Shown piece after piece: positions 4,659-7,591 of a DNA stretch of 14,331 nucleotides; positions within the stretch are counted from its first letter, which is position 1; every line of letters begins with the position of its first letter. The notes below the pieces were generated by a model. The model saw nothing but the letters and a program-made list of their open reading frames with translations, was not told the DNA's origin and ran no database searches. A program made the translations under genes and the position numbers. Source of the stretch: a virus (taxonomy: Duplodnaviria; Heunggongvirae; Uroviricota; Caudoviricetes); IMG/VR virus record IMGVR_UViG_2778261418_000001, positions 1 to 14,331 of that record. One strand, given 5' to 3'.

Positions 4659-5102
4659 TTATTTCTTTGGATTTAGCTTTTCCATGTTCTCTGCGATCGT
4701 ACCTATTCTTGACCTTATTGTTGGAATATCAATTCCTCTCTGTATGTCTACATTTAAAGACATAAGCTCTCTGCTCCATCCTGCGATCGCATCGTGAAAT
4801 TGTCTTGCCCTGCTTGCTTGTCTACGTCTGCTGCTTTCAAGCTCTGTAAGCATTTGCTTTGCTTCGATCTGAGACTTGCCTTGCCCAACTCCCAATGCAT
4901 CGATTGCACATTGCCTCATCTCTGCTTTTATCAAAGGGTGAAGATTTTCAGCGCCAATAAAAATTACCTCGTCTATGCTTTTAAAAAGCAGAAGGCAATC
5001 AGTAACAACTTTGGTTCTTTTATCATCACACCTTACCTCTACCGAAGGTACGCCGCCATATTGCTTAACTCTCATTGCCGTGTAAACTGTAGCACTCTTC
5101 AA
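4659..5102 (-). CDS. hypothetical protein (147 aa) occupying the N position; TTG start
   Basis: AAGGAGG Shine-Dalgarno 5 nt before TTG at 5102. First gene after pL. Internal Arg-rich stretch SSRRRQASRARQ. No resemblance to lambda, 21 or P22 N. Confidence 0.55.
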   Translation of the reverse strand: MKSATVYTAMRVKQYGGVPSVEVRCDDKRTKVVTDCLLLFKSIDEVIFIGAENLHPLIKAEMRQCAIDALGVGQGKSQIEAKQMLTELESSRRRQASRARQFHDAIAGWSRELMSLNVDIQRGIDIPTIRSRIGTIAENMEKLNPKK

Positions 5103-5130
5103 ATCAGCCTCCTTTTTCTTTTTCTATATC

Positions 5131-5170
5131 AAAAAGCTGCTTTGCTTTTTGTGACTAAAAGCAAAAAAGC
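5131..5170 (-). promoter_or_regulatory. large hairpin plus U-run in the pL leader, preceded by a boxA-like motif
   Basis: Minus-strand RNA: GCUUUUUUGCUUUU-agucac-AAAAGCAAAGCAGC (14-bp stem, one mismatch) then UUUUU, ending ~17 nt before the RBS. TGCTCATTA lies ~10 nt 5' of the hairpin (boxA consensus CGCTCTTTA). Confidence 0.45.
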
Positions 5171-5259
5171 CTTCTCGCTAATGAGCAGCATTGCCGTTCA
5201 TCCTGAACCCGCCGCGCTCCCGACGCATGGTTTAATGTCGCGCCGTTCGACATGGCTTA

Positions 5260-5301
5260 ACTATACCCAAAGCTATTATTGCTGTAAATAGCTATAGTTA
5301 T
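5260..5301 (-). promoter_or_regulatory. OL/pL: leftward early promoter with overlapping repressor operators
   Basis: Minus strand -35 TTTACA (plus 5283-5288), 17-bp spacer, -10 TATAGT (plus 5260-5265). Operator-like sites ATACC-caaa-GCTAT (5263-5276) and ATAGC-tata-GTTAT (5288-5301), same architecture as OR. Confidence 0.6.
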
Positions 5302-5390
5302 AAAATAACTCCTTTGGTTATTTAGTCATTGATATCTAATGTAATTTATTTTTCTTGTATGTGAGATTTGGTGTTTTTTGGGCAATAAAA

Positions 5391-5409
5391 AACCCGCAAA
5401 AAGCGGGTT
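5391..5409 (-). terminator. intrinsic terminator downstream of cI
   Basis: Stem AACCCGC/GCGGGTT with 5-nt loop. On the minus strand it is followed by TTTTATT. 19 bp past the cI stop. Confidence 0.6.
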
Positions 5410-5427
5410 TGTTGTGGTGTGATGAGG

Positions 5428-6159
5428 TTAGTAGTCAACTACAGACCACCAGAAGATTCTTCCGATGATCTCGATATCGCTTAGATTCTTTTCTTCTTGT
5501 GGGTATTCCAGTGAGTTAAAGCTTCTAATGCTTACCTTGTCAGGCCCTGATCGAAAGAGAATCTTAATGCGTTTCCAACCGTTCTCGTTAATGGCGTAAA
5601 TCTTTCCGTCAACTATTTTCTTATCGTTGGTGTTAACAGCAACTGTTGTTCCATCAGGAATGTTTGGCTCCATGCTGTTGCCACGAGCCGGAAAACAAAC
5701 AACCCCGCTTCCATCACTGTTCGCGCCAACTCTGCGAAGGGTTGATTTGGAGAAGCGCAACATAAAGCCGTTGTGATCTTCATCAATCACCCGACCATCC
5801 CCGCATGCAAACTCAATATCTTTAAGGTAAGGAACTTCAACTTCATCACCTCTTAAAGGCGTTCCTCCATCCCATGGGTCCAAATATCCCCACGTGCTTT
5901 CATGAGGAATAGAAGATTTTGGATTATAAGGTTCAACTCCCTCATCACGCATTGGCCCAGTCCCATCGGAAAGCCATTCCGTACGAACTCCAAGCACTTT
6001 TGATATTTCAAAAAGTTTGCGCGTATTGCGTGTTTTTCCAGACGTAAGTTTCCAGACGCTTGGCTGAGACATGCCAACAGCATTGCCAAGAGAAGCCTGA
6101 GTAAACCCAGCCTGATCCATCGCGTATGTAAGCCTTTGAGAAAAAGTATCTAGTTTCAT
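5428..6159 (-). CDS. cI: CI-type prophage repressor (HTH N-domain plus LexA-like S24 autopeptidase C-domain)
   Basis: N-terminal XRE-type HTH (QASLGNAVGMSQPSVWKL). C-terminal S24 fold with the Ser motif GNSMEP and Lys in KRIK. Divergent from cro, flanked by operators; mRNA appears leaderless from pRM. Confidence 0.85.
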   Translation of the reverse strand: MKLDTFSQRLTYAMDQAGFTQASLGNAVGMSQPSVWKLTSGKTRNTRKLFEISKVLGVRTEWLSDGTGPMRDEGVEPYNPKSSIPHESTWGYLDPWDGGTPLRGDEVEVPYLKDIEFACGDGRVIDEDHNGFMLRFSKSTLRRVGANSDGSGVVCFPARGNSMEPNIPDGTTVAVNTNDKKIVDGKIYAINENGWKRIKILFRSGPDKVSIRSFNSLEYPQEEKNLSDIEIIGRIFWWSVVDY

Positions 6160-6165
6160 TCGTAC

Positions 6166-6236
6166 AACCTATAGCTACAGCTATTATTAGTCAAATACCT
6201 AAAGCTATTTACTTTCTGAATAGCTTTGGCTATTAT
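6166..6236. promoter_or_regulatory. OR region: three operators overlapping divergent pRM and pR
   Basis: Sites ATAGC-taca-GCTAT (6171-6184), ATACC-taaa-GCTAT (6195-6208), AATAGC-tttg-GCTATT (6218-6233). pR: -35 TTTACT (6208-6213), 17 bp, -10 TATTAT (6231-6236). pRM on minus: -35 TTGACT (6189-6194), 17 bp, -10 TAGGTT (6166-6171), with the cI ATG ~7 nt downstream. Confidence 0.65.
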
Positions 6237-6267
6237 TCTGATTGTGAATTCAGCAGGAGTTATTTTT

Positions 6268-6498
6268 ATGGTCAACGAGGCTATTAAAGCGGCTATTGAC
6301 TCAGTAGGAAGTCAGCAAAAGTTAGCTGATGCCTGCGGTGTTAAGCAGCCGTCTGTATGGGCTTGGTTGCATGGGAAGAAAAGGGTATCCGCTGAAAATG
6401 CCAAGCGCATTGAAATGGCTACCAATGGAAGCGTCCCTGCATACCTGATTCGCCCTGATTTATCCGCTTTGTTCCCCAATCCGAACAAAGCAGCTTAA
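6268..6498 (+). CDS. cro: Cro-like repressor (76 aa from ATG 6268)
   Basis: First gene rightward from pR. AGGAG RBS before ATG 6268. HTH QQKLADACGVKQPSVWAWLHGKK. The TTG at 6226 in the track ORF lies inside the operator. Confidence 0.75.
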   Translation: MVNEAIKAAIDSVGSQQKLADACGVKQPSVWAWLHGKKRVSAENAKRIEMATNGSVPAYLIRPDLSALFPNPNKAA

Positions 6499-6617
6499 TA
6501 AAGCAAATTTTTATACCGAACGGCCCGGTATACGGTCGGGTGCCCGGCGTGGTCATGGATGACTGTCAATGGTGCACAATAAAAAACCAAATTATTTACC
6601 TATGGAAATAGTAAGAA

Positions 6618-6914
6618 ATGGAACAAACAAGTTACAGCAAACTATCACAGCGCGACGTTGATCGCGCAGAAACAGATTTACTTATCAACCTGTCAACGCT
6701 TACTCAGCGCGGTCTGGCAAAGATGATTGGCTGTCATGAATCGAAGATAAGCAGAACGGACTGGAGATTTATTGCTTCAGTCTTGTGTGCTTTCGGAATG
6801 GCATCAGACATCAGTCCGATTAGTAGGGCTTTTAAGTATGCGCTTGATGGAATCACAAAGAAAAAATCCCCGGCCGCCACCGAGGATTTTAAGCAAATTG
6901 ATATGCAATTCTGA
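6618..6914 (+). CDS. cII: CII-like transcriptional activator
   Basis: 98 aa. C-terminal KKKSPAATEDFKQIDMQF aligns with lambda CII (KKRPAATERSEQIQMEF), with the HTH centrally. Position after cro. Confidence 0.75.
   Translation: MEQTSYSKLSQRDVDRAETDLLINLSTLTQRGLAKMIGCHESKISRTDWRFIASVLCAFGMASDISPISRAFKYALDGITKKKSPAATEDFKQIDMQF
6627..6640 (-). promoter_or_regulatory. putative pRE CII-binding repeat (TTGC-N6-TTGT) inside the 5' end of cII
   Basis: Minus strand reads TTGCtgtaacTTGT. Lambda pRE has TTGC-N6-TTGC flanking its -35 in the same place and orientation. Confidence 0.35.
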
Positions 6915-6946: not shown

Positions 6947-7591
6947 ATGACATACGAAAATGACAAATTCCAGGTTCTGAAGAGCATGAAGGTTCCAGAT
7001 GATTTTAAATCAAATGGCTTTGTTTATGTGCTTTCGAATGAGTGCATGCCAGGAATTTATAAGATTGGGATGACTAAGCATTCACCAGAAGTTAGGGCTA
7101 AAGAAATTTCAGCCTCTACTGGCGTTCCTAAGCCATTTAAGGTGATAGCAGCCTTTCATTCAAATAATCCCGCATCAGATGAAAAACTCATTCATAAAGC
7201 CTTTGCAAAAGAGAGGCTTAGTGATAATCGAGAGTTTTTCAAGCTTGAAGATAATGATCTTTCTGAATCTCTAAATGAAATAAGGGCGCTGGTTGGCCCT
7301 GAAAGAAATGGCGAGACGGCAGAATACGCAATTTACGACTCATTCATTTCTTTTCGCCATGAAAATGAGCTTGATCTTAATGAGGAGCTTATAGAGCAAG
7401 GTCTGGGTAGTGTAGTTGGTCATCTTCCTGCGGTGAAAAATTTCCTTATTCGCGCCGGAATTGATTACGCGAAGCAACTGATAAGCAAATATAACTCATC
7501 GATAGTTATTAATACAGATGGCAGTGTGGTGATGGTTAAGTCTCTTGAAGCCCAATGCTTTGATGCGGAGGTTGGAAATGAGCCTTGCTGA
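6947..7591 (+). CDS. T5orf172 (GIY-YIG-like) domain protein; moron between cII and O
   Basis: GGAG RBS. N-terminal GFVYVLSNECMPGIYKIGMTKHSPEVRAKEI ... REFFKL matches the T5orf172/MUG113 GIY-YIG-related pattern. Lambda has cII directly followed by O. Confidence 0.65.
   Translation: MTYENDKFQVLKSMKVPDDFKSNGFVYVLSNECMPGIYKIGMTKHSPEVRAKEISASTGVPKPFKVIAAFHSNNPASDEKLIHKAFAKERLSDNREFFKLEDNDLSESLNEIRALVGPERNGETAEYAIYDSFISFRHENELDLNEELIEQGLGSVVGHLPAVKNFLIRAGIDYAKQLISKYNSSIVINTDGSVVMVKSLEAQCFDAEVGNEPC

Follow-up and report, generated by a model that had tools for sequence, protein, structure and literature searches.

The window, by which we mean the whole analysed stretch of 14,331 bp, comes from a mosaic lambdoid E. 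coli prophage, of which it is the early region. At 94-98% identity, HK97, HK022, CUS-3, the mEp phages and the Wanchaivirus PDP110P2 match 35-53% of its length. The following features concern us here; scores in bits refer to a weight matrix derived from relatives of the locus only, and operator names denote putative sites:

5183-5245, minus strand: putL, HK022-type antiterminator RNA (96% identity to HK022/O276; coordinates transferred from the O276 annotation)
5260-5265 (-10 TATAGT) and 5283-5288 (-35 TTTACA), minus strand: predicted promoter pL, 17-nt spacer (consensus scan, 10/12)
5263-5276: OL1, ATACCCAAAGCTAT, in the pL spacer and overlapping the -10 (17.7 bits; kept in relatives)
5288-5301: OL2, ATAGCTATAGTTAT, adjoining/overlapping the pL -35 (15.6 bits; 25 bp from OL1, likewise in relatives)
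5308-5321: possible degenerate OL3, ACTCCTTTGGTTAT, weak, with one good half-site only, 20 bp from OL2
5390-5410, minus strand: predicted intrinsic terminator of cI, AAACCCGC-TTTTT-GCGGGTTT followed by a T run (terminator scan)
5428-6159, minus strand: cI repressor gene, 243 aa (Pfam HTH_3 and Peptidase_S24)
6166-6171 (-10 TAGGTT) and 6189-6194 (-35 TTGACT), minus strand: candidate promoter pRM, 17-nt spacer (read from the sequence)
6171-6184: OR3, ATAGCTACAGCTAT, in the pRM spacer and touching the pRM -10 (19.1 bits; all close relatives have it at -25 relative to the cI ATG)
6195-6208: OR2, ATACCTAAAGCTAT, between the -35 elements of pRM and pR and adjoining both (18.1 bits; position -49 conserved)
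6208-6213 (-35 TTTACT) and 6231-6236 (-10 TATTAT), plus strand: predicted promoter pR, 17-nt spacer (consensus scan, 9/12; hexamers invariant in relatives)
6220-6233: OR1, ATAGCTTTGGCTAT, in the pR spacer and overlapping the -10 (21.8 bits, the top matrix score; position -74 conserved)
6268-6498, plus strand: cro, 76 aa (Pfam YdaS_toxin, P22_Cro and HTH_3), with the Shine-Dalgarno sequence AGGAG at 6255-6259
6521-6577, plus strand: putR, HK022-type (identity to the annotated HK022/O276 features)
6618-6914, following cro: Phage_CII gene (Pfam)

The flanks of this locus are 96% identical to HK022/O276, whereas the part in between is not (megablast; the HK022 match covers 15% of the query). The left block of HK022 homology (5122-5255), which contains putL, stops at the start region of pL, and the right block, which holds putR and cII, begins at about 6514, directly past the stop codon of cro. 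Since the borders coincide with the ends of the HK022 homology, the stretch from 5256 to 6513 behaves as an exchangeable 'imm' module, comparable to those swapped in the classical hybrids lambda imm434 and lambda imm21. We consider it highly probable, jointly with the regulatory switch proposed below, that 5256-6513 is a complete exchangeable immunity cassette consisting of pL/OL, terminator, cI, OR and cro. The locus has divergent genes for an HTH+S24 repressor and a small HTH Cro protein, tandem palindromes over divergent promoters, with a motif that recurs at pL, and antitermination sites together with cII in the flanks, as is expected of a lambdoid immunity region. Because an Rfam scan of 4900-6800 returned no family above threshold, the put RNAs were assigned solely by their 96% identity to the annotated HK022/O276 features.

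The cI and cro pair matches PHROG 4 and PHROG 35, both of which are transcriptional repressor families. We place the start of cro at ATG 6268 rather than at TTG 6226, where the translation in the mechanical ORF list begins. The cI protein shares 51.6% identity with phi80 cI over 99% of the length of the latter, and this full-length homology includes the presumed catalytic residues S162 (GNSMEP) and K196 (WKRIK) and the cleavage-site motif A118-C119-G120, all of them invariant in a family alignment of ten sequences. Its N-terminal domain aligns to residues 2-63 of the 434 repressor at an E-value of 5e-9, with residue 6 of cI pairing with residue 2 of the 434 repressor and QPSVWK falling opposite QQSIEQ. 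Judged by these alignments, cI is a phi80-type repressor with a 434-like DNA-binding domain. The closest solved structures to Cro are all-alpha proteins, namely Xylella Cro (3bd1) and P22 Cro. The recognition helices of the two proteins, S31-Q-P-S-V-W-K37 in cI and K-Q-P-S-V-W-A in Cro, have QPSVW in common.

The initial annotation had described an ATAGC-N4-GCTAT family common to OL and OR, with three OR sites about 24 bp apart over a divergent pRM/pR pair and the same motif over pL, and all of this is borne out. A search with ATAGCNNNNGCTAT at up to one mismatch gave five matches in the 14,331 bp, compared to 0.45 expected from shuffles, and none of 200 dinucleotide-preserving shuffles contained five copies. 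All five lie in the non-coding stretches on both flanks of cI. With two mismatches allowed, only three further, scattered matches outside the immunity region appeared, about as many as chance would give (8 observed, 5.8 expected). The centres of OR3, OR2 and OR1 (6177.5, 6201.5 and 6226.5) are 24 and 25 bp apart, that of OR2 lying at -42.5 relative to the cI ATG, and those of OL1 and OL2 (5269.5 and 5294.5) are separated by 25 bp. The near-identical pair that had been quoted, ATACC-taaa-GCTAT at OR and ATACC-caaa-GCTAT at OL, reads as given, and OL1 and OR1, compared on opposite strands, are equally close with 13 of 14 positions identical; OL1 also holds the position within its own promoter that is equivalent to that of OR1.

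The window contains two good OL sites only. The weak candidate OL3 at 5308-5321 is absent from the 15 best matrix matches in the window, of which the fifteenth scores 2.1 bits, and is kept merely as a possible remnant; in the relatives L030 and L035 a third site with the same 20-bp spacing is recognisable. Another OL candidate at 5333-5346 was rejected, as it is likewise outside these 15 matches. A terminator-like hairpin at 6199-6229 was also discarded, because it is formed by the right half of OR2 pairing with the left half of OR1.

A scan of IMG/VR with the family alignment yielded 80 loci with a cI that shares 57-100% identity with that of the window, and the motif search in related prophages that had been suggested found the sites conserved down to 66% cI identity. 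Relatives at 92, 83, 82, 68 and 66% cI identity possess three OR sites, located at -74/-49/-25 or -75/-50/-26 relative to the cI ATG, together with two OL sites spaced by 25 bp; in L035 and L043 this OL pair lies beyond inserted genes, about 1-1.4 kb further from cI. In an alignment of eight OR regions (cI 66-100% identical), 27 of 30 half-site columns are invariant, as are 18 of the 24 columns that belong to promoter hexamers and the cro Shine-Dalgarno sequence outside the half-sites, but only one of 12 in the operator centres and eight of the 42 remaining intergenic ones. The imperfect half of OR2 in L043 sits on the opposite side of the site, so that it is the palindrome which is preserved and not a fixed or promoter sequence. 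A weight matrix built from 26 sites of the five relatives with 66-92% cI identity, the window being excluded, recovered exactly the five window sites with 15.6-21.8 bits, while the next best position reached 5.7 bits. Its consensus is A-T-A-G(75%)-C(88%)-Y-W-W-R-G-C-T-A-T. A fourth 'site' upstream of cI in the relatives, ATAGCTCCTGCTGT, was left out of the matrix and rejected as an operator, since it corresponds to the Shine-Dalgarno region of cro read on the complementary strand.

The operator sequence changes together with the recognition helix of the repressor. Of the 78 loci with enough upstream DNA, 31 have the helix QP[ST][VI]W[KR], and 30 of these possess at least two motif sites upstream of cI, compared to none of the 47 with other helices, although these loci are phylogenetically related and represent about six immunity types, so that the counts overstate the number of independent observations. 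The association is found in two deep lineages, that of the window and the ASU11 type. An unbiased palindrome search with all 1024 five-mers and spacers of 3-7 also returned ATAGC-N4-GCTAT as the top palindrome at the loci with this helix. Other helices are accompanied by other sites: QPA(I/V)QK by ATAAC-N4-GTTAT and QAAIQK by ACAAC-N4-GTTGT, both essentially at -74/-49/-25, and QGAIQK by AATAC-N4-GTATT and QSTINK by ATCGC-N4-GCGAT, both at other positions. Within each immunity type, Cro and cI begin their recognition helix with the same residues. There is one exception, L037, which has the recognition helix of the window yet possesses ATACC/ATAAC...GGTAT sites; position 4 of the half-site is therefore not set by the helix alone. 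The restriction of the sites to the flanks of cI, the footprint in the relatives, the recovery by the matrix, the co-variation with the helix and the QPSVW of Cro all speak for the earlier proposal that these are probably true repressor sites.

It is possible, if at present doubtful, that the phi80-type cI family is a natural set of orthogonal repressor/Cro/operator triplets on a common scaffold with a simple code between helix and half-site, in which the window and ASU11 types might repress each other. The scaffold may consist of three OR sites at -74/-49/-25 from a leaderless cI in several types. As for the code, helix residues 2-3 and half-site positions 2-4 may change together, with P-S/T corresponding to TAG, P-A to TAA, A-A to CAA and S-T to TCG.

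The half-site differs from the operators of HK022 and phi80 as read from annotated records and also from those of lambda, 434 and P22. The initial annotation had compared it to the last three and suspected a distinct immunity specificity, a suspicion to which the comparison with HK022 and phi80 adds support. The ATAGC word is, however, not unique to this cassette, as the ASU11-type lineage has the same half-site. Among 50,697 deposited phages, the DNA-binding domain was found in two uncharacterised ones only, APC_JM3.2 and PDP110P2, the next match being less than 58% identical. APC_JM3.2 carries the same cassette as the window, and the publication devoted to it is a genome announcement. A literature search gave no report of binding, footprints or transcript starts for the cassette, and six exact site strings gave no phage-related match in the literature that could be searched, the single match being an unrelated human CRISPR screen. 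Besides two sequenced phages, the immunity type occurs in 31 complete E. coli genomes out of 5,426, among them several from human clinical isolates and poultry, and RefSeq labels its genes as XRE family or plain transcriptional regulators. The specificity of this immunity appears not to have been described before, although the kind of switch is thoroughly understood, and the new content is limited to the operator word and the family-wide correspondence between helix and half-site.

One might object that the specificity is not distinct at all and belongs to an existing type, with the two groups being perhaps partly homo-immune, since ASU11-type loci have ATAGC-N4-GCTAT at both OR and OL. The cI of these loci has the helix AQPT[IV]WR and their Cro the residues QPSVS. 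The two types differ in that ASU11-type cI is just 57-61% identical to that of the window and in the layout of OR, where the ASU11 sites are located near -92 and -34 and the proximal one contains a Shine-Dalgarno sequence; moreover, we found no description of the ASU11 operators either in the literature searched. No E. coli genome is shared between the window type (31 genomes) and the ASU11 type (17 genomes), but with only about 0.1 expected this speaks neither for nor against homo-immunity. We regard this objection as unlikely to hold, although it is the most serious of those considered here, and retain the reading of an apparently undescribed specificity.

A consensus scan of 5100-6650 for sigma-70-type promoters detected two strong ones, pR and pL, both on operators, and pL runs leftward into putL. 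In the direction of transcription they have the same architecture: the last base of the O2 site is also the first T of the -35, and 6 nt past the -35 follows ATAGCTTTGG(C/G)TAT, whose last bases open the -10. The parallel layout noted before, with O2 adjoining the -35 and O1 in the spacer overlapping the -10, is thereby confirmed, as is the recurrence of the motif at OL, where OL1 and OL2 lie on the pL found by the scan. The candidate pRM stayed below the threshold of the scan, as expected for an activator-dependent promoter. The start of cI reads TTGACT-17-TAGGTT-GTACGA-ATG, with the ATG at 6159 and the -10 ending 6 nt before it. There is no Shine-Dalgarno sequence in front of cI, whereas cro has one, and the pRM positions TTGA and TAnnnT are invariant across the aligned relatives. 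In lambda pRM, too, 6 nt separate the -10 hexamer from the ATG. These observations agree with the earlier suggestion that the cI transcript is leaderless as in lambda, which we predict from the same elements.

The maintenance transcript might instead start further upstream, or the true start codon might lie downstream. The -10 TAGGTT is weak, the scan missed pRM, and in relatives of the ASU11 type cI is preceded by a normal Shine-Dalgarno sequence. This is set against the gap between OR3 and the cI ATG, which is 11 nt in the window and most close relatives and 12 in L032 and L033, the lack of a Shine-Dalgarno sequence, and the TAnnnT hexamer located 6-7 nt before the ATG in every aligned relative. 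A downstream start would also delete helix 1, as is evident from the pairing of cI residue 6 with 434 residue 2, and lambda cI and paaR2 are documented leaderless genes of the cI type (PMC8630535). A conventional leader is thus rather improbable, somewhat more so than a shared specificity with the ASU11 type, and we keep to the prediction of a leaderless cI.

In our view the five palindromes are, with high probability, the operators of cI and Cro in a lambda-like switch. Dimers of cI and dimers of Cro would read ATAGC-YWWR-GCTAT via the 434-like HTH domain, with Q-P-S-V-W in both proteins. In a lysogen, cI on OR1+OR2 and on OL1+OL2 would block pR and pL, and cI at OR2, whose centre lies at -42.5 from the cI start, would be placed to activate the weak divergent pRM, which would start at or beside the cI AUG and give rise to a leaderless mRNA. 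Since OR3 is in the pRM spacer, pRM would be silenced by high levels of cI or, once the prophage is induced, by Cro. Repression would end when the S24 domain undergoes self-cleavage stimulated by RecA, which would make the prophage SOS-inducible. The order in which the sites would be filled and any cooperativity, as well as binding and pRM activation, we infer by way of the lambda/434 paradigm.

It could be argued that the operators are real but read by one of the two regulators only, or by some other protein of phage or host, so that the three-way logic of lambda fails. In some lambdoid-type systems, such as 933W and the telomere phages, the use of operators is reported to depart from that of lambda (PMC3317979). 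In the present case, cI and Cro share QPSVW, such sharing recurs in each immunity type, and the positions of the sites on pR, pRM and pL match the lambda layout, all of which makes a single or foreign reader quite improbable. That the palindromes bind nothing and arose by chance or from a self-resemblance of AT-rich promoters is hardly credible: their overlap with promoter hexamers might account for some of the conservation, but no shuffle reached five sites, the adjoining spacer drifts whereas half-site bases that lie outside the hexamers do not vary, OR2 of L043 keeps the palindrome and not the promoter sequence, and sister phages hold the positions while the word changes in step with the recognition helix. 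The lambda-like switch with cI and Cro as readers is therefore the interpretation which we follow below.

There are many parallels to lambda. In both, cI and cro are divergent and there are three OR sites, 24-25 bp apart in the window and 23-24 bp apart in lambda. O1 lies in the promoter spacer and overlaps the -10, O2 is found at the -35, and the pRM spacer holds OR3; the centre of OR2 is near -42 of pRM, the ATG follows the -10 after 6 nt, and the C-terminal domain is of the self-cleaving S24 type. In contrast to lambda, the window has operators of 14 instead of 17 bp with an unrelated sequence, a 434-like DNA-binding domain, and a Cro of the all-alpha P22/YdaS type, whereas that of lambda has a beta-rich fold. 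There is no rexAB between cI and OL, and the good OL sites number only two.

The 434 repressor is the closest solved structure to the N-terminal domain of cI, and both systems have two-fold symmetric operators of 14 bp, which in 434 read ACAA-N6-TTGT. Gln28 of the 434 repressor reads operator position A1, and in the window A1 also stands opposite a conserved Gln in the first position of the recognition helix. In both, repressor and Cro share the start of this helix and the operator centre is A/T-rich and not conserved. The window differs in the half-site (ATAG(C) versus ACAA(G/T)), in the helix (QPSVWK versus QQSIEQ) and in the C-terminal domain, which is of the phi80 type. A 434-like HTH domain with 14-bp symmetric sites points to recognition of the 434 type, but not to imm434 specificity, as ATAGC is combined with QPSVWK instead of ACAA with QQS. 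Other relatives, namely Klebsiella RCIP0034 and S.Inf 5-2, have a QQAIQQ helix and ACAA-N6-TTGT-like sites. In 434 and P22, the operator centres tune affinity by indirect readout (PMC3317979), and the YWWR centre of the O1 and O2 sites compared to the mixed centre of OR3 (TACA) is reminiscent of this and may serve a similar purpose.

With phi80, the similarity concerns the repressor: homology extends over the full length and the C-terminal domain is nearly invariant, including the F-A-C-G-D-G stretch; phi80 cI is cleaved at a Cys-Gly bond. The operators of phi80 are repeats of the ATCAAC/ATCCAC type, its helix is SPQTVNN, and extra genes lie between its cI and OL, in all of which the window differs. 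With HK022, it concerns the surroundings, that is the flanks with 96% identity, putL to the left of pL and, beyond cro on the right, putR and cII. Between these flanks stands a different cassette; the operators of HK022 read TGWAC-N5-GTWCA, and the window has no nun gene after putL. As the megablast match is confined to the flanks and the operators differ, the immunity is not that of HK022. The PaaR2/YdaS system of CP-933P, the nearest studied YdaS-type switch, has been footprinted and shares a YdaS-family Cro, a leaderless repressor gene and the lambdoid logic (PMC8630535). It was nevertheless discarded as a model, because repressor and operator both differ: PaaR2 does not possess an S24 domain, and the palindromes that serve as its operators are 18 bp long with the consensus GTTTAGTAA (PMC8630535).

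The understanding of lambdoid switches is unchanged by these results, as the inferred mechanism is that of lambda and 434. They do provide a precise map of operators and promoters for an immunity type that has so far been labelled merely XRE family transcriptional regulator, and this map predicts which prophages are homo-immune and which are hetero-immune. In addition, one more natural repressor/operator pair and a list of helices with their half-sites become available, which could be used as orthogonal parts or for testing predictions of specificity. Should the phi80-type cI family indeed be such a set of orthogonal triplets, the window would be its first ATAGC member to be described, and the window and ASU11 types, with about 57% identity, could cross-repress each other's prophages.

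The immunity cassette, which is itself not of the HK022 type, is bracketed by putL and putR sites of the HK022 type. The features around it, in window coordinates, are the following.

4659-5102, minus strand: 147-aa protein, first gene of the pL operon, matching PHROG 13686
5122-5255, minus strand: HK022-type putL antiterminator RNA site, 96% identity to HK022/O276
6514-6600, plus strand: HK022-type putR antiterminator RNA site, 96% identity to HK022/O276
6947-7591, plus strand: protein of 214 aa carrying T5orf172 and MUG113 domains

Neither put RNA matched a family in Rfam. Behind putL the window has neither an N-like gene nor nun, and the slot held by nun in HK022 is taken here by the 147-aa gene, which starts with TTG behind a strong ribosome-binding site (AAGGAGG). 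Its product has no Pfam match, and PHROG 13686 is a family of unknown function. On the other side of the cassette, cII is directly adjoined downstream by the T5orf172/MUG113 gene, at the place where the O/P replication genes usually start in lambdoid phages.

The cassette matches two places in the chromosome of E. coli E10 (NZ_CM143887). E. coli EM03-18-08 (NZ_CP063483 and NZ_CP063485) also has two matches, one chromosomal and one on a 39-kb record that was deposited as a plasmid and may be an excised circular phage.

Within the cassette, a scan flagged a 13-bp inverted repeat (6199-6229) as terminator-like. We rejected this reading, as the repeat is no more than OR2 and OR1 pairing through their facing halves (right half of OR2, left half of OR1). 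In some relatives OL includes a third site, 20 bp past OL2 (L030, 2333-2346; L035, 3660-3673). A possible remnant of it in the window, at 5308-5321, retains only one half-site. Two relatives, L035 and L043, have genes inserted between the cI stop and OL, the position of rexAB in lambda, and their OL sites are thereby set about 1-1.4 kb further away from cI; the window has no such insert.

The related phi80-type cI proteins of L012 (Klebsiella phage RCIP0034) and L008 (Salmonella phage S.Inf 5-2) have a recognition helix resembling that of 434 (SQQAIQQ), and 434-like ACAA-N6-TTGT palindromes are found upstream of cI. In L037 the cI helix (AQPSVWK) is that of the window, and yet the sites in the cI-cro gap are of the ATACC/ATAAC-N4-GGTAT type; the Cro helix of L037 (SQPAVFR) is a different one. 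L047 (SVPSIWK) looks similar in its cI-cro gap. L037, together with the similar-looking L047, is an exception to a simple code in which the cI recognition helix co-varies with the operator half-site.
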